Below are positions 19,086 through 24,940 of a DNA stretch of 25,389 nt, piece after piece. The position numbers and the translations under genes were made by a program. Positions within the stretch are counted from its first letter, which is position 1. Each line of letters starts with the position of its first letter. Source of the DNA: an uncultured Candidatus Saccharibacteria bacterium (lineage in GTDB: Bacteria > Patescibacteriota > Minisyncoccia > Phycocordibacterales > PALSA-1337); contig CAZRJE010000001.1 in assembly GCA_964600335.1 (NCBI GenBank), positions 1 to 25,389 of the forward strand. Reading direction: 5' to 3'. The notes under the pieces are model-generated. The model made no database searches. It saw only the letters and a program-made list of their open reading frames with translations, and was not told the origin of the DNA.

Positions 19086-19976
19086 ATGGCAAACAGACAT
19101 CTATCTCGATCAATAGTCCTTCAAGCCCTCTTTGAATGGGATTTCAACAATTTTCCTCAAAATATTGAAACAGAATATATAAATAGACTCATTCATGAAT
19201 TTGCTCCAGGTCTCGCTGATACAGGTTTCTCTATAGAGTTGTTTAAAGGTATTACTGCAAAGAAAACAGAGCTCGATTTAATAATAGAAAAAGCGGCTCC
19301 AGATTGGCCGATCGATAAAATTTCTCCGATCGATAGGGCTGTTCTTCGACTAGGACTCTATGAATTGATTTTTGCTGACAAAGAGCATGTTCCTGCAAAA
19401 GTAGCCATAAATGAAGCTATTGAACTCGCAAAATCATATGGCGGTGAAGCCAGTGGCAGATTTGTAAATGGTGTTATGGGTGCAGTTTACAAAGAGATGG
19501 GAGAACCAGGAAAAGATGCTCAAGCTCCAAAGAGAAAACAAGAAGTTCCTTATGAAAAGATGCCAATACAAGCTCTTGGTGGGGCGGTTGTCTATTCTGA
19601 GAATGAAGGAGTCAAATATCTCGCTTTTGTACATGATGTTTTTGGACATTGGACTTTAACAAAAGGAAAGATTCCACAAGATGTTGATCCAAAACAAGGA
19701 ACTATTGATAAAGTCAAAGAAGAGATAGGCCTCAATGTTGAGATAATATCTGATCTTGGGGTAAATGAATATATAGCAAATGAGCCAGAGAAAGGAAAGA
19801 TTCGAAAACAGGTACATTATTTTTTGGCAAAAGCTCCATTTTCAGATTTGATTCTTGCAAAAAAACCAGGCCTCGATGATGCTAAATGGTTTAAATTAAG
19901 TGATATTTTGGATCTAAATTTTTATAGTGACATTTTGCCCATCGTTACCAAGGCAGTTACAACACTAAGCGAATAA
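19086..19976 (+). CDS. nusB: Transcription antitermination factor NusB fused to a C-terminal Nudix-fold domain
   Basis: Residues 1-~138: IDRAVLRLGLYEL, VAINEAIELAK, FVNGVMG. Residues ~163-296: GAVVY, WTLTKG...KEEIGL, VHYFLA, AKWF. Confidence 0.9.
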   Translation: MANRHLSRSIVLQALFEWDFNNFPQNIETEYINRLIHEFAPGLADTGFSIELFKGITAKKTELDLIIEKAAPDWPIDKISPIDRAVLRLGLYELIFADKEHVPAKVAINEAIELAKSYGGEASGRFVNGVMGAVYKEMGEPGKDAQAPKRKQEVPYEKMPIQALGGAVVYSENEGVKYLAFVHDVFGHWTLTKGKIPQDVDPKQGTIDKVKEEIGLNVEIISDLGVNEYIANEPEKGKIRKQVHYFLAKAPFSDLILAKKPGLDDAKWFKLSDILDLNFYSDILPIVTKAVTTLSE

Positions 19977-19977
19977 T

Positions 19978-20694
19978 ATGAAAAAGATTGATAGGCAATT
20001 GCCAAGTATGGAAATACTGTCAGAAAAGATAAACGTGACTTTTACTGATATTGGATTATTGAGAAAAGCTTGTACGCACAGGTCGTTTTTGAATGAGAAT
20101 AGAAGTTCTCAAATGGAGCACAATGAGAGATTAGAATTTCTGGGAGATGCTGTACTAGAACTCGTCGTAACGAGCTTTCTATTTCGTAAGTATCCAACCA
20201 AAGCAGAAGGTGAGCTCACCGCTTTTCGTTCAGCAATAGTAAATACTGTAAGCCTTACAAAAGTCGCAGAAAAGATCGGACTAAACGACTTTTTGCTTTT
20301 ATCAAAAGGTGAAGCCAAGGATACTGGTAGGGCACGTTCTGTAATATTGGCAAATGCTGTAGAAGCTGTAATCGGTGCTATTTATATGGATCAGGGTTAC
20401 AATGCCGCGGCAAATTTTATAAGTGAGCAAATACTAAATACCATTGATATCGAAGAGATTGTAAAGAAAAAATTGTGGATAGATGCAAAGAGTAGATTCC
20501 AAGAATTAGCTCAAGAAAAAGTCGGTGTTACTCCATCATACAAAACAATGAAGGAAACTGGTCCAGATCATGATAAAGAATTTACTATTGGAGTATTTTT
20601 GGGTTCAACTCAAATAGCATCAGGCACTGGTGCTTCAAAACAAGATGCTGAGCAGAGAGCTGCAGAGAAAGCAATCGAGGCTAAGGGATGGTAA
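19978..20694 (+). CDS. rnc: Ribonuclease III
   Basis: HRS, signature NERLEFLGDAVL, EGEL, EAVIGAIYMDQG; dsRBD DAKSRFQE...GTGASKQDAEQ. Confidence 0.97.
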   Translation: MKKIDRQLPSMEILSEKINVTFTDIGLLRKACTHRSFLNENRSSQMEHNERLEFLGDAVLELVVTSFLFRKYPTKAEGELTAFRSAIVNTVSLTKVAEKIGLNDFLLLSKGEAKDTGRARSVILANAVEAVIGAIYMDQGYNAAANFISEQILNTIDIEEIVKKKLWIDAKSRFQELAQEKVGVTPSYKTMKETGPDHDKEFTIGVFLGSTQIASGTGASKQDAEQRAAEKAIEAKGW

Positions 20695-20703
20695 AATAGT
20701 GCC

Positions 20704-22932
20704 ATGTATCTAAAATCACTAGAAATAATAGGTTTTAAATCATTTGCTAAGAAGACAAATATAGGATTTACAACACCTGTGACAGCAATAGTCGGTCCAA
20801 ATGGTTCCGGAAAGTCAAATGTAGCAGAAGCATTTAGATTTGTTCTCGGAGAACAATCCGTAAAGTCCATGAGAGGAAAGAAAGGTGAAGATCTGATTTG
20901 GAATGGTGGCAAAGATATTCCGAGACTAAATAGAGCCTCTGTAAAAGCAACTTTTGATAATACTACACGACTGTTTTCAAAATGTGACTTTGATGAGGTG
21001 ACAATAGAAAGAGTCATAAATAGAGATGGGAATAATGAATATTTGCTTAATAATACAGAAGTTCGTCTCAAAGATATAAATGAGATTTTGGCTGAAGCCC
21101 ATGTTGGTACGACGGGACACCACATAATCTCGCAAGGAGAAGCGGATTCTGTTTTGTCTTGTTCAAATATGGAAAGAAGAGAGATTATCGAAGATGCACT
21201 TGGTCTTAAGATCTATGAGTGGAAAAAAACTGAAAGTGAAAAAAAATTACAAAAGACTCTAGACAATATGCAACAAATCGATGGTCTTCGAAAAGAGTTG
21301 TCACCACATATTCGTTTTTTAAAGAAACAAGTTGAAAAAATAGAAAAATCTCGAGAGGATCGTGGGACACTTCTGAATCTGTACAGAGAATATTTTGCAA
21401 AAGAAAAGTCCTATTTGGATTTCGAGAAAAATAGACTTGGAGAATTGTTGAGTACACCGAAAAAAGATTTATCAAATATTGAAAGAGAAATAGAAAATTT
21501 GAGAAATACACTCGATCTTGATAATACACAAAATAAAGACGAGGACAAGTTGCTTGAAATTGGAAATAAGATAGCAGAGATAAGGCAAAAAAAGGATGTT
21601 TTGACTCGCGAGACAGGTAGACTTGATGGAGCGATATATTCTCTAAATAAAACAATCGAAAGAGAAAAATTAAAAAATAATGCTAATGAAGATAAGATTA
21701 TTTATGTAAGAGATGTTGAGACACTGGTTATTCAAATCGAATCTCTTCATTCTATAAATGATGTAAAAGTCTTATTCAATGAAGTCATAAACAATTTAAA
21801 GACATTCATAACTCGATTTAAATCCAAAATAGATACTTCAATAATAGATGAATATACAAAAGAATTAGAAAATCTAAAGAGAGATAAATCCAAAATCGAT
21901 GATGAATTATCCAAGATCGATATGGAATTGTCGAGATCAAATCTTGAATATGAGGAGATGAGAAATGTCTTGATGCGCGAGAAGAACAAAAAAAGTGAGG
22001 CTGAAAAAAATCTCATCATAGCTGTCACAAAGCAAAATGAACTTAGAATGCATATTCAGAGTATAAATCAAGAATTGATGAGATTAGAAAATGATGAAGA
22101 TGTATTCAAAAAAACAAAAGACGAAGCTCATATCTTACTCGGAAGAGATGCTGTCTCATTTGAAGACATGGTGTATGTAAAGGAATTAAGAAGTATTCAG
22201 CATGATAGGATGAAACAGATAGAGAGATTAAAATATAAGATTGAAGAATCTTCTTTTGGTAATGCTGATGAAATTATCAAAGAGTATAAGGAAACTAGTG
22301 AGAGAGATACGCATTTGGAGAGGGAAATATCCGATCTAATCAAGGCTGAGGATGAATTGAGAAATATCATTTCAGACTTAAACAAAAGAATCGATAAAGA
22401 ATTTCGTGATGGTATAGAAAAGATAAACTCTGAATTTGATAGATTATTCAGGATTATGTTTGGGGGCGGATATGCAAAACTCAATGTGGTGAGAATGCCT
22501 GAAAAGAAAAAGAAAATCTTAGAAGATGATATCGAACCACAGATATTTGATTCAAAAGAAGAAGAGGATGATATCCGAGAAGGACTCGAAGTCGACGTCA
22601 GTCTTCCAACCAAAAAGGTTAAGGGCTTGATGATGTTATCTGGCGGTGAAAGAGCATTGACTTCGATAGCACTACTCTTTGCTATTTCAAGAGTAAATCC
22701 ACCTCCATTTATCATACTCGATGAAACAGATGCGGCTCTCGATGAATCAAATTCAAGGAAATATGGAGATATGATAGAGAGTCTGAGTCAGCAATCAGAA
22801 CTCATAATCATAACTCACAATAGAGAGACAATGTCGAGAGCAGGGGCACTATATGGTGTCACGATGAATGCAGATGGAGCTTCAAGATTGTTATCTATTA
22901 TATTTGATGAAGCTGTACGAGTTGCAAAATAG
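20704..22932 (+). CDS. smc: SMC-family ATPase, short (742 aa), no recognisable hinge
   Basis: GFKSF, Walker A GPNGSGKSN, ISQG Q-loop, coiled coils, FGGG, signature LSGGE, Walker B ILDETDAALD, ITHN, LYGVTM; directly follows rnc. Confidence 0.9.
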   Translation: MYLKSLEIIGFKSFAKKTNIGFTTPVTAIVGPNGSGKSNVAEAFRFVLGEQSVKSMRGKKGEDLIWNGGKDIPRLNRASVKATFDNTTRLFSKCDFDEVTIERVINRDGNNEYLLNNTEVRLKDINEILAEAHVGTTGHHIISQGEADSVLSCSNMERREIIEDALGLKIYEWKKTESEKKLQKTLDNMQQIDGLRKELSPHIRFLKKQVEKIEKSREDRGTLLNLYREYFAKEKSYLDFEKNRLGELLSTPKKDLSNIEREIENLRNTLDLDNTQNKDEDKLLEIGNKIAEIRQKKDVLTRETGRLDGAIYSLNKTIEREKLKNNANEDKIIYVRDVETLVIQIESLHSINDVKVLFNEVINNLKTFITRFKSKIDTSIIDEYTKELENLKRDKSKIDDELSKIDMELSRSNLEYEEMRNVLMREKNKKSEAEKNLIIAVTKQNELRMHIQSINQELMRLENDEDVFKKTKDEAHILLGRDAVSFEDMVYVKELRSIQHDRMKQIERLKYKIEESSFGNADEIIKEYKETSERDTHLEREISDLIKAEDELRNIISDLNKRIDKEFRDGIEKINSEFDRLFRIMFGGGYAKLNVVRMPEKKKKILEDDIEPQIFDSKEEEDDIREGLEVDVSLPTKKVKGLMMLSGGERALTSIALLFAISRVNPPPFIILDETDAALDESNSRKYGDMIESLSQQSELIIITHNRETMSRAGALYGVTMNADGASRLLSIIFDEAVRVAK

Positions 22933-23547
22933 TTAGATTTTATTTTTTAGTGCACTTTCTATTGTGGACGTATCGGCATATTCTATTTCAGAGCCAGTTG
23001 AGAGTCCTCGGCCAAGTTCATATATCCGAATTGAAGTATTTATTTTTTTTATCTCATCTCTGAGTACACTTGCTGTGTTTTCGCCTTCACGATTTAGTGA
23101 TAGGGATATGATTATTTCATGAATATTTTGGTCAGTCTTTATTCTATGAATAAGTTTTGAAAGACGAATATACTTGTCGTATTCAGTTTCCATGAGAGGT
23201 ATCATGCCTCCGATAACAAAATACAAACCTTTATAAGCACTACTTTTTTCAACATTTTCTAAATCAGATTCTTTGGACAAAATCATAAGTGATGCAATAT
23301 CTCTATCTTGTGAAGAACAAATACCGCATCTTTTAGTTTGCATCTTTGTATTATGCTCATCTATATATAATCTTTGACACAATTCACAGCGGTGAGAGGA
23401 TTTTTTCATTTCAGAAATAGAATTTATGAAATCACGTATGTATGAATCACTTTGATTGATTAGGTGATATACAAATCTCTTGGCTTGTCGTGGCCCAATA
23501 CCGGGAAATCTCAAGAAAAATTGTTCGAGATGCTTTTGTTTTTCCAT
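22933..23547 (-). CDS. recR: Recombination mediator RecR (204 aa from ATG 23547; ATG 23574 is an alternative)
   Basis: FPGIGPRQAKRF HhH, CELC...CGIC zinc finger, Toprim, GEN, LGRGLSTGSEIEYAD..T; ATG 23547 lies 1 nt after the dnaB stop. Confidence 0.93.
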   Translation of the reverse strand: MEKQKHLEQFFLRFPGIGPRQAKRFVYHLINQSDSYIRDFINSISEMKKSSHRCELCQRLYIDEHNTKMQTKRCGICSSQDRDIASLMILSKESDLENVEKSSAYKGLYFVIGGMIPLMETEYDKYIRLSKLIHRIKTDQNIHEIIISLSLNREGENTASVLRDEIKKINTSIRIYELGRGLSTGSEIEYADTSTIESALKNKI

Positions 23548-23548
23548 G

Positions 23549-24940
23549 CTATTGTTTGGCGTCAAAATCTCCAAAATCTGCTTTGTCTACAGATAGAAAT
23601 GTTGTTTTCTTGCTATCAAAGTACAATTTTACTGTACCTGTCGGTCCATTTCTGTGTTTTTCTATCATGATCTCGGTCTCTTCTCTTCGTCCTCCTTGAT
23701 CCTGATCTGCATCGCGGTGAATGAACATCACAACATCAGCATCCTGTTCGATAGAACCAGAATCTCTCAAATCAGATAGTCTTGGCTTACCACCTCTTTG
23801 TTCGACCGCGCGAGACAATTGAGATAGAGCGAGTACGGGCACCTCGAGCTCTCTAGCGAGATTCTTTAGAGAACGCGATATCTCTGTTACTTGTTGGACA
23901 ATATTGTCATTGTTTTTGTATTGCGAAGAGGGAACCATGAGTTGGAGATAATCTACAACTATGAGTCCCAATCCTTTTTCATTTTTTAGTCTTCTTGCTA
24001 CTGAGCGCATCTTTACGATATTGTTTCCAGGAGTATCATCTATAAATATTGGCGCTTCGGAAAGCTTGCTTATAGCAGTACCTATAGCTTTGAAATCATT
24101 TTCTACTGATAGATTGTGCCCAGTACGAATCTTCCAAGCATCTACTTGAGATTCGGCTGAGAGCATACGATCGACGAGTTGTTGTGAGCTCATTTCGAGA
24201 GAAAATACCATGATTGGAATCTTGTGATTTACTGCAGACTTTCGGACAATATCTAGAGCAAGAGATGTCTTTCCCACAGAAGGTCGAGCAGCGAGAATTA
24301 TGAGATCTGATTTTTGAAGTCCAGCGAGTTTATTGTCCAATTCTTGAAAACCAGTTGGAACACCTCGAACCTCGTTTCTGGTCTCATGGAGATGTTCTAT
24401 TCTCGTCCAAGCTTCGTCGAGGGTATCTTTCATTGCAATATATTTTCTCGAGCCAGTCTTGTTTGTGACTTCAAAGACGGTTTTTTCTGCTTGTTCCAAT
24501 AGATCGTGTAATTCTGCTTCTTCATTGTAGCCTAGTCCTGATATATTGTCCGCGGCTTTTATGAGTTCTCGCATTATATGTTTCTTTTCTATCACTTCGG
24601 CATAATATGTAATACTGCTCGAAGAAGGGACGGAGTTTACTACTTCAGTGAGGTATGTCATGCCCCCGATATTTTCTAATTGTTGTTTTTCTTTAAGCTT
24701 ATTTGATATGGAGAGTATATCTATAGGTGCACTCTTTAGATGCAATTCTAAGATCGCATTCCAAATAGTCCTATTTTGATTACTATAAAATGAATGTTCA
24801 TTTATAATATCCAATATCTCGTATATTGATTCGGGTCTCAATACAATAGATCCAAGCAAGGCTTGCTCGGCCTCAATATTTTGAGGTGGTATACGAAGAT
24901 CTTTTGTCTTGAAGTATGGTGATGTTGTCTTGGGATTCAT
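23549..24940 (-). CDS. dnaB: Replicative DNA helicase
   Basis: PPQNIEAEQALLG, ILAARPSVGKT, FSLEMS, VDYLQL, LSQLSR, SDLRDSGSIEQDAD, KHRNGPTG; no intein. Confidence 0.98.
   Translation of the reverse strand: MNPKTTSPYFKTKDLRIPPQNIEAEQALLGSIVLRPESIYEILDIINEHSFYSNQNRTIWNAILELHLKSAPIDILSISNKLKEKQQLENIGGMTYLTEVVNSVPSSSSITYYAEVIEKKHIMRELIKAADNISGLGYNEEAELHDLLEQAEKTVFEVTNKTGSRKYIAMKDTLDEAWTRIEHLHETRNEVRGVPTGFQELDNKLAGLQKSDLIILAARPSVGKTSLALDIVRKSAVNHKIPIMVFSLEMSSQQLVDRMLSAESQVDAWKIRTGHNLSVENDFKAIGTAISKLSEAPIFIDDTPGNNIVKMRSVARRLKNEKGLGLIVVDYLQLMVPSSQYKNNDNIVQQVTEISRSLKNLARELEVPVLALSQLSRAVEQRGGKPRLSDLRDSGSIEQDADVVMFIHRDADQDQGGRREETEIMIEKHRNGPTGTVKLYFDSKKTTFLSVDKADFGDFDAKQ

Follow-up and report, generated by a model that had tools for sequence, protein, structure and literature searches.

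A short-armed Smc without a hinge, probably the housekeeping Smc of an Smc-ScpAB condensin in Patescibacteria

The window analysed here is a stretch of 25,389 nucleotides from an uncultured Candidatus Saccharibacteria bacterium (assembly GCA_964600335.1, contig CAZRJE010000001.1, positions 1 to 25,389 of the forward strand). It carries on its + strand an smc gene (20704..22932, stop codon counted), an uninterrupted open reading frame with an ATG start that encodes 742 amino acids (aa) and contains no internal stops or frameshifts. Nine nucleotides upstream, on the same strand, lies rnc, encoding RNase III (19978..20694; Pfam Ribonucleas_3_3 and dsrm), and recR adjoins the locus on the opposite strand; inspection of the neighbourhood revealed no adjacent gene for a nuclease partner. 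Of 50 loci inspected, 22 show the same rnc-smc adjacency, those of canonical smc in Paenibacillus and Streptococcus among them; that canonical smc in Bacillota shares this position agrees with the original prediction that the gene occupies the ancestral position.

The two ends of the product form the two halves of an ATPase head. The N-terminal half (aa 1-168; 20704..21207, + strand) contains the Walker A motif GPNGSGKS (aa 31-38, nt 20794-20817) and the Q-loop (Q144), aligns with the Bacillus subtilis Smc heads 5xg3 and 3zgx, and is modelled by AlphaFold2 (AF2) at pLDDT 82-91. The C-terminal half (aa 587-742; 22462..22929, + strand), recognized by alignments and AF2, contains the signature LSGGE (aa 645-649, nt 22636-22650), Walker B FIILDE (aa 669-674, nt 22708-22725), the D-loop (aa 676-680) and the H-loop (H705). 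All of these motifs are invariant or almost so in an alignment of 77 sequences, and the heads are complete and of Smc type, as had been predicted. A charged, lineage-specific insert of about 25 aa (aa 597-623; 22492-22572, + strand; pLDDT below 50) sets the C-terminal head apart from that of B. subtilis Smc, which lacks it in the alignment. The protein contains only two cysteines, C94 and C153.

Between the head halves, an AF2 model of the monomer predicts an antiparallel intramolecular coiled-coil arm with a joint (pLDDT 78-94). The N-arm (aa 169-320; 21208..21663, + strand), supported by the conservation profile, consists of helices 169-271 and 276-320, separated by a break at aa 272-275 (nt 21517-21528, + strand); the C-arm (aa 381-586; 21844..22461, + strand), delimited by AF2, by alignment to 5xg3 and by the best fold match 5xei, is interrupted at the joint, between aa 480 and 495 and again between 517 and 520 (nt 22141-22263, + strand). 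The joint-like segment FGNADEIIKEY, singled out from the sequence beforehand, aligns to a conserved motif of 5xg3, a B. subtilis Smc head-plus-arm crystal construct. Conservation is strong in the head-proximal neck (aa 165-215) and in the arm section aa 500-590, and two further conserved motifs mark the arms, GRxEG in the N-arm (aa 305-309) and another in the C-arm (aa 424-436). In the full-length model the N-arm measures about 150 aa and the C-arm about 205 aa, close to the 155 and 200 residues first estimated and, with the open frame, consistent with a gene that is free of frameshifts and has balanced arms. Arms of roughly half the normal length had been proposed; the model puts them at under half the usual Smc length (about 150 versus about 340 aa), giving a predicted reach of about 22 nm versus about 50 nm in B. 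subtilis.

At the hinge position stands a tip module (aa 321-380; 21664..21843, + strand; 330-377 in a sub-model) of about 50-60 residues, for which AF2 predicts a pair of short helices, at about 335-346 and at about 354-373, and which has neither a Gly-rich hinge motif nor a cysteine; this is the mostly helical apex without hinge motif or CxxC that had been placed at about residues 325-380. The full-length model gives the tip a pLDDT of 38-58, the sub-model one of 64-84. Pfam finds no SMC_hinge or Rad50_zn_hook match in the product even at E<=1, the outcome expected for the hinge, and in profile-profile alignment (hhalign) with hinge-bearing Patescibacteria Smc the hinge columns (PF06470) stay unmatched. 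A divergent hinge at the tip was considered and rejected, as hhalign spreads residues 315-396 over giant gaps; a Foldseek search of the PDB and AFDB with the tip returned only generic coiled-coil hairpins (E>0.01), with no hinge or hook. HMM, profile-profile and fold searches therefore agree in detecting no divergent hinge fold at the apex. The only PF06470 match of the genome (12.8 bits, contig C9) falls in GyrB and is not a standalone hinge.

Pfam SMC_N matches residues 2-727 of the product (201 bits), and among the NCBIfam models TIGR02168 is by far the best, with 516 bits in two pieces; the archaeal-type SMC model reaches 277 bits, Rad50 57 and RecN 38. The match covers TIGR02168 positions 1-350 and 893-1179 only, so that about 540 canonical profile positions are lacking, and its score lies below the equivalog cut-off (516 versus 567 bits). 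The head aligns to B. subtilis Smc with E 1e-88, the best Foldseek match is 5xei (Smc head, coiled coil and joint), with 5xg3 also matched, and a tree built from head and neck sequences puts every Patescibacteria form on one side of canonical Smc (SH-aLRT 85). As judged from these comparisons, the smc product is an Smc orthologue, and the earlier description of a condensin-derived ATPase holds. With the Smc of Smc-ScpAB complexes (B. subtilis and G. stearothermophilus; TIGR02168; 5xg3, 3zgx, 5h68) it shares the head fold, motifs, neck and joint, as well as the rnc-smc order and genome-encoded ScpA, ScpB and ParB; it differs in having a two-helix tip and arms of about 150 aa where canonical Smc has the PF06470 hinge and arms of about 340 aa.

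RecN and Rad50/SbcC typically have short arms and no hinge, and the gene could on that account be a repurposed DNA-repair or defence ATPase of RecN- or Rad50/SbcC-like function, Smc-like only in its heads and part of no condensin. The adjoining recR, the failure to find RecN in the query genome (84% complete) and a Rad50-like hook in some relatives would fit such a history, which we nevertheless consider improbable: the Smc score far exceeds those for RecN and Rad50, the rnc-smc synteny is that of canonical smc, presence and absence closely follow ScpB, the joint and neck are Smc-like, and no nuclease partner adjoins. The likeness to Rad50/SbcC lies in an ABC-type head, an antiparallel coiled coil, the missing hinge and, in the hook-bearing relatives, a CxxC apex, whereas the query itself has no CxxC, a head of Smc type and no adjoining Mre11/SbcD; RecN, too, is SMC-like, short and hinge-less, whereas its length, joint and synteny differ. 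An actual RecN or Rad50 identity is ruled out by the model scores (TIGR00634, 38 bits where the cut-off is 408; Rad50 models, at most 57 bits where the cut-offs are at least 700).

The partners of a condensin are encoded in the same genome. As originally observed, neither scpA nor scpB lies in the window; the genome search that had been proposed found both, as neighbours on contig C29 (ScpA 69 bits, ScpB 122 bits), and ParB is encoded elsewhere. Since ScpA and ScpB are present, the complex would still be Smc-ScpAB. Apart from the smc gene, no SMC-superfamily gene and no full-length smc was found in this fragmented metagenome-assembled genome (69 contigs, 84% complete); together with the rnc-smc position, this accords with the suggestion that it is probably the housekeeping copy. 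A TIGR02168 match on C29 is not a second SMC: it belongs to a coiled-coil M23 peptidase (EnvC-like).

The short form is widespread. SMC frames occur in 98 of the 151 sampled genomes of the class, all of about 700-810 aa and none above the TIGR02168 cut-off, and in 39 of 41 relatives the frame measures 735-800 aa. The best 150 cluster representatives are likewise short (about 640-780 aa, save one fragment of 470 aa), and almost all align end to end. Pfam detects SMC_hinge in none of these 151 genomes and in only 6 of the 301 sampled across the phylum. Full-length genes in close relatives would have pointed to a recent event; relatives across the genus, order and class carry the short form instead. 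In these sequence surveys, the hinge-less short form is the class-wide and nearly phylum-wide state and not a peculiarity of the query genome. That a full-length smc has been misassembled, has recently suffered an internal deletion or is decaying into a relic is effectively refuted: the fragmented source assembly and the complete loss of SMC in about one third of the class could be read in its favour, but the same architecture recurs in hundreds of independent assemblies, single-contig genomes among them, with no stops or frameshifts, invariant catalytic motifs and balanced arms. The loss in a third of the class does show that the function is dispensable in this lineage. Smc and ScpB occur together in 94 of the 151 genomes and are both missing from 52, with Smc alone in four (two of these being weak matches) and ScpB alone in one; the mini-Smc and ScpB are thus retained or lost jointly in the class.

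Evidence on the role of the tip comes from close relatives. Within the 15-row clade of the query (support 100), six homologues carry CxxC(G/A/K)Q at the same apex, one of them with a faint Rad50_zn_hook match. Because these close relatives bear a Rad50-like CxxC hook there, the tip is suggested to be a dimerisation site. The tip sequence is weakly conserved across the class (1.5-2.4 bits) and varies among orders. In the order-level alignment, conservation reaches at least 90% at E339, L365 and F368. GRxEG and the C-arm motif lie 112-126 aa apart in the 94 homologues that match a strict pattern, and 119 aa apart in the query as read by hand. We give even odds to the proposal that this two-helix tip, some 50-60 residues long, represents an undescribed SMC dimerisation module and that, within one Patescibacteria order, evolution has swapped it with a Rad50-type zinc hook.

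The most serious competitor accepts the same orthologue and its ScpAB partners and dispenses with a stable apical dimer: the tip would only cap a coiled-coil hairpin, nothing but the ScpA-ScpB bridge and the ATP-dependent engagement of the heads would hold the Smc pair, and DNA would be clamped or bridged at the heads, in an engaged-head/kleisin compartment, with no closed Smc compartment. Weak conservation and low model confidence of the tip, its lack of a fold match to known dimerisation modules, and the concentration of conservation in heads, neck and joint are what this account would expect. We hold it to be unlikely, if well ahead of a repair ATPase, as it leaves unexplained the tightly held tip length, the three conserved tip residues and the hook-bearing variants at the same apex in the same clade, which argue that apical pairing is under selection.

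The reading we prefer, with a probability of roughly 70%, is that the gene encodes the housekeeping Smc of an Smc-ScpAB condensin in Paceibacteria/Minisyncoccota (Patescibacteria), in an ancient, lineage-wide shortened form that most likely works as a tip-joined dimer. ATPase heads, kleisin-binding neck and joint are kept, and the tip takes the place of the distal arms and hinge; two Smc molecules would join there through a lineage-specific helical module, or in some close relatives through a zinc hook at the same position. ScpA, with a ScpB dimer bound, would link one head's neck to the other head's cap; ATP-driven head engagement would lead to DNA clamping and translocation, and ParB/parS would load the complex. 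The outcome would be a small Smc-kleisin ring or rod that organizes and segregates a chromosome of about 0.7 Mb. Dimerisation through the tip, formation of a ring, loading by ParB and extrusion of loops are inferred.

Laboratory constructs provide the nearest comparison. Buermann et al. 2017 (PMC5344682) engineered Mini-Smc and the zinc-hook chimera Smc(Zh) of B. subtilis, proteins with short arms or a replaced hinge to which the apical CxxC hooks of the query's relatives are natural counterparts; the chimera, in which the hinge was exchanged for the Pyrococcus furiosus Rad50 hook, is described as functional. All Mini-Smc constructs retained the hinge, and the shortest functional arms were about 253-267 aa; the survey of natural arm lengths in the same study, which required a recognizable hinge, contains a minor mode at 163 aa, near the query's arm of about 150 aa (PMC5344682). 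Since Mini-Smc with off-period arm lengths did not relocate from parS in B. subtilis, the behaviour of a natural arm of some 150 aa might differ (PMC5344682). A literature search of the available library found no description of hinge-less Smc in Patescibacteria/CPR. A 'hinge-less' SMC clade has been reported in marine Actinomycetes (Sussfeld et al. 2025, PMC12153180); it resembles the query in its SMC-type heads, antiparallel coiled coil, absence of hinge and CxxC, and abundance in uncultured bacteria, and it belongs to another phylum, with no mention of ScpAB co-occurrence or hook variants in the excerpts consulted. The Atlas contains a cluster of 722-aa SMC_N proteins that is commonest in Actinomycetota.

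In current models of SMC function the hinge serves dimerisation, DNA binding and gate opening, arm length is seen as tuned, and the hinge is usually regarded as indispensable. The hinge-less Smc of the ultra-small Patescibacteria would represent a natural minimal version of the machine: in hundreds of species, Smc-ScpAB appears to have arms of about 150 residues, no hinge and interchangeable tips (helical module or zinc hook), a natural experiment in which Smc parts are dispensable. If the proposed role of the tip is correct, nature has repeatedly run Smc-ScpAB on arms of about 22 nm without a hinge, and the complex can function in the absence of both the hinge fold and arms of canonical length. 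Being small, the protein should lend itself to structural and single-molecule studies. Annotation is affected as well: scoring below the Smc equivalog cut-off, these hinge-less Smc proteins often carry the label 'AAA family ATPase' or 'hypothetical'.

In a quick tree the hinge-bearing clade branches from within the hinge-less forms, but a single hinge-less clade is not rejected by the AU test (p 0.20). Congeners are only about 54% identical, with synonymous sites saturated, and in two congeners the Walker A loop contains an intein.

The smc frame at window positions 20704-22932 (forward strand) starts with ATG, is open throughout on translation, and encodes 742 amino acids, confirming the original prediction of an intact hinge-less mini-Smc: the Pfam model SMC_N matches residues 2-727 with 201 bits, and neither SMC_hinge nor the Rad50 hook matches the query even at E<=1. 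Apart from C94 and C153 the protein has no cysteine, and hence the CxxC motif is missing as described. Among the NCBIfam models, TIGR02168 (bacterial Smc) ranks clearly first with 516 bits, followed by an archaeal-type SMC model (277 bits), the Rad50 models (at most 57 bits) and RecN (38 bits), and, with an E-value of about 1e-88, the head halves match 5xg3 and 3zgx, two constructs of the Bacillus subtilis Smc head. These matches support the proposed condensin-derived ATPase, and the joint-like segment noticed earlier (FGNADEIIKEY) is included in the alignment to the two constructs as a conserved C-arm motif. The query remains below the equivalog cut-off of TIGR02168 (567 bits) because only profile positions 1-350 and 893-1179 align; the query lacks any equivalent of the distal arms and the hinge, some 540 positions.

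An AlphaFold2 model of the full query, built on a 77-sequence alignment, has a mean pLDDT of 80 with confident heads, and the PDB entry that it matches best is 5xei, which comprises an Smc head, coiled coil and joint (E 5e-26). The model predicts N-arm helices at residues 169-271 and 276-320 and a C-arm at 381-586 that is interrupted at 480-495 and 517-520, corresponding to the joint; the tip between the arms (residues 321-380) is poorly modelled (pLDDT 38-58). A sub-model of residues 270-432 on its own alignment reaches pLDDT 84 (64-84 in the tip), and places short helices at 335-346 and 354-373 between the ends of the arm helices. The hinge scan was negative as expected, and no divergent hinge was detected either: Foldseek searches of PDB and AFDB clusters with the sub-model returned no hinge fold or hook, only generic coiled-coil hairpins (all E>0.01), and in a profile-profile comparison the hinge columns of hinge-bearing Patescibacteria Smc stay unpaired with the query family, though the arms align. 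At about 0.15 nm per residue (our own figure), the arm of about 150 residues would span roughly 22 nm, as compared with the roughly 47-49 nm stated for canonical Smc in PMC5344682 and PMC5526789; the modelled arm is thus less than half the canonical length, in support of the earlier estimate of about one half. The N-arm helix break is conserved at residues 272-275 (window 21517-21528), with near-invariant residues close by, and roughly opposite lies a conserved C-arm motif at residues 424-436 (window 21973-22011; consensus EKEKDTNRDAEK..F); together they could mark an interruption of the arm or something like an elbow. The C-terminal head carries a charged insert at residues ~597-623 (window 22492-22572), predicted to be disordered (pLDDT <50), in which a Lys run is followed by Asp/Glu-rich residues between two beta strands; it is not found in B. 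subtilis Smc and varies within the mini-Smc family.

The source genome, a MAG, totals 618 kb over 69 contigs and is 84% complete; profile searches of these contigs found no second SMC (and so no full-length smc elsewhere), no hinge and no RecN. A weak hinge match falls in GyrB, and a weak SMC match on another contig, C29, belongs to a putative coiled-coil M23 peptidase: the 425-aa protein there (L004:457-1734), encoded near scpA/scpB, begins with a signal-like stretch, continues as a long coiled coil and ends in a C-terminal domain that looks like an EnvC-like M23 peptidase by sequence, which accounts for the match.

A recent deletion or a misassembly would leave close relatives with full-length genes, and the relatives are also short. 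In a sample of 41 genomes from the order (the source genome, 24 congeners and 16 from other families), 39 show the same two-piece TIGR02168 match, and complete frames, leaving out a few that run off contig ends, measure 735-800 aa, save two intein-bearing genes of about 1330 aa. Across the class, 98 of 151 genomes show this match, and their frames measure about 700-810 aa; none of the matches in these 151 genomes reaches the TIGR02168 cut-off, and none of the genomes has SMC_hinge above its own. Hinges are present in 6 of 301 genomes sampled across the phylum, from two families. Of the 10,812 clusters that an exhaustive search of cluster representatives with the query found at E<=1e-30, the 150 best-matching are all short (about 640-780 aa, save one 470-aa fragment) and nearly all align end to end with the query. 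The database matches are named Paceibacterota, Parcubacteria, Taylorbacteria or Minisyncoccia and labelled 'chromosome segregation protein', 'AAA family ATPase' or 'hypothetical'. The short hinge-less form is therefore neither an artefact nor recent; the oddity is real but not peculiar to the source genome, being a trait of the whole lineage.

Other Patescibacteria classes (contig records L059, L060, L061 and L099-L105; tallies include one unpublished genome, G337, on which no individual statement depends) mostly have frames of 830-912 aa without a Pfam hinge. The two intein-bearing congeners (L062:270-4286; G018:C17) encode products of 1322-1341 aa, in which an intein of about 550 aa, made up of Intein_splicing and a LAGLIDADG_3 homing-endonuclease domain, interrupts the Walker A loop directly after Walker A (profile positions 36/37).

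A maximum-likelihood tree built from the heads and necks (77 rows, 443 columns) places every Patescibacteria form, whether mini, about 880 aa, hook-bearing or hinge-bearing, to one side of canonical Smc from Bacillota, Chloroflexota and further groups (SH-aLRT 85). The forms that have a hinge, which are related to Magasanikbacteria, group in one clade that the tree puts, with weak support, inside the hinge-less forms; an AU test does not reject one hinge-less clade (p 0.20), so that the hinge may have been lost once or more than once. A Patescibacteria-type Smc is also found in several MAG records with the title 'uncultured Gammaproteobacteria' or 'Bdellovibrionales' (L065, L071, L100, L101, L104, L108, L118, L124); in the tree all of these except L101 and L108 branch within Patescibacteria clades, and the titles probably name the wrong taxon.

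Conservation across the class is lowest in the tip (1.5-2.4 bits), which differs from order to order; within the order-level alignment E339, L365 and F368 are conserved at >=90%, and the spacing from GRxEG (305-309) to the C-arm motif is 112-126 aa in 94 homologues (119 aa in the query, read by hand). In 6 of 269 homologues screened for apical cysteines (P0137, P0155, P0168, P0192, P0201, P0224; 663-719 aa, 46-51% identical to the query over the stretches matched by phmmer), an apical CxxC(G/A/K)Q replaces the helical tip, one with a faint Rad50_zn_hook match (E 0.034). All six share one fully supported 15-row clade with the query and its order, and a single hook origin is not rejected (AU test, p 0.70). 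A B. subtilis Smc with the Pyrococcus furiosus Rad50 hook in place of its hinge is described as a functional chimera (Buermann et al. 2017, PMC5344682). Taken together, the constraint on the tip, the hook variants, their placement and the chimera make the apex a likely site of dimerisation, for which the helical tip would be one solution and the hook an alternative.

Earlier, scpA and scpB had been noted as missing from the window; for the genome this does not hold, as ScpA and ScpB lie side by side on C29, with ParB on contig C10. Among the same 151 class genomes, which as relatives are not independent, 94 have both Smc and ScpB and 52 have neither (many of them 98-100% complete); four have Smc without ScpB (two being weak matches of about 1e-11), and one, 55% complete, has ScpB without Smc. 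The losses are spread over many separate families and extend to whole families, and the class appears to have undergone repeated losses of condensin as a whole. The co-occurrence supports a working Smc-ScpAB complex that would be kept or lost together, and the head-proximal arm (residues 165-215 and 500-590), conserved nearly as well as the heads, fits retained kleisin-neck and joint functions.

Natural Smc arm lengths have modes of 238, 341 and 515 aa and a minor mode of 163 aa (Buermann 2017, PMC5344682); this survey counted only proteins with a recognisable hinge, and would therefore have missed mini-Smc proteins. The concept of a hinge-less SMC is already published: Sussfeld et al. 2025 (PMC12153180) describe such a clade, abundant in marine Actinomycetes, an analogue of mini-Smc from another phylum; in the Atlas, a 722-aa SMC_N cluster is commonest in Actinomycetota. 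The literature searched held no description of the mini-Smc family of Patescibacteria, of its hook variants or of its link with ScpAB, and a hinge-less Smc in these bacteria should be surprising to SMC specialists and is directly testable.

The proposed ancestral rnc-smc position is also supported. Upstream of smc lie rpmF, a nusB-Nudix fusion and rnc, whose stop is separated from the smc start by 9 nt; by a strict motif, rnc is immediately 5' of smc in 22 of 50 loci inspected, among them many mini-Smc loci as well as the canonical smc genes of Paenibacillus and Streptococcus sanguinis. The fusion, directly upstream of rnc (window 19086-19976), is a single frame in which NusB (114 bits) is followed by a NUDIX domain (30 bits) at the C-terminus. 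Downstream, recR and dnaB (window 22933-24940, reverse strand) are convergent with smc, whose stop codon directly adjoins the recR frame; recR encodes 213 aa (longest frame, TTG start) and dnaB 463 aa, and, should this TTG start be genuine, the 5' end of recR overlaps the 3' end of dnaB by 26 nt.
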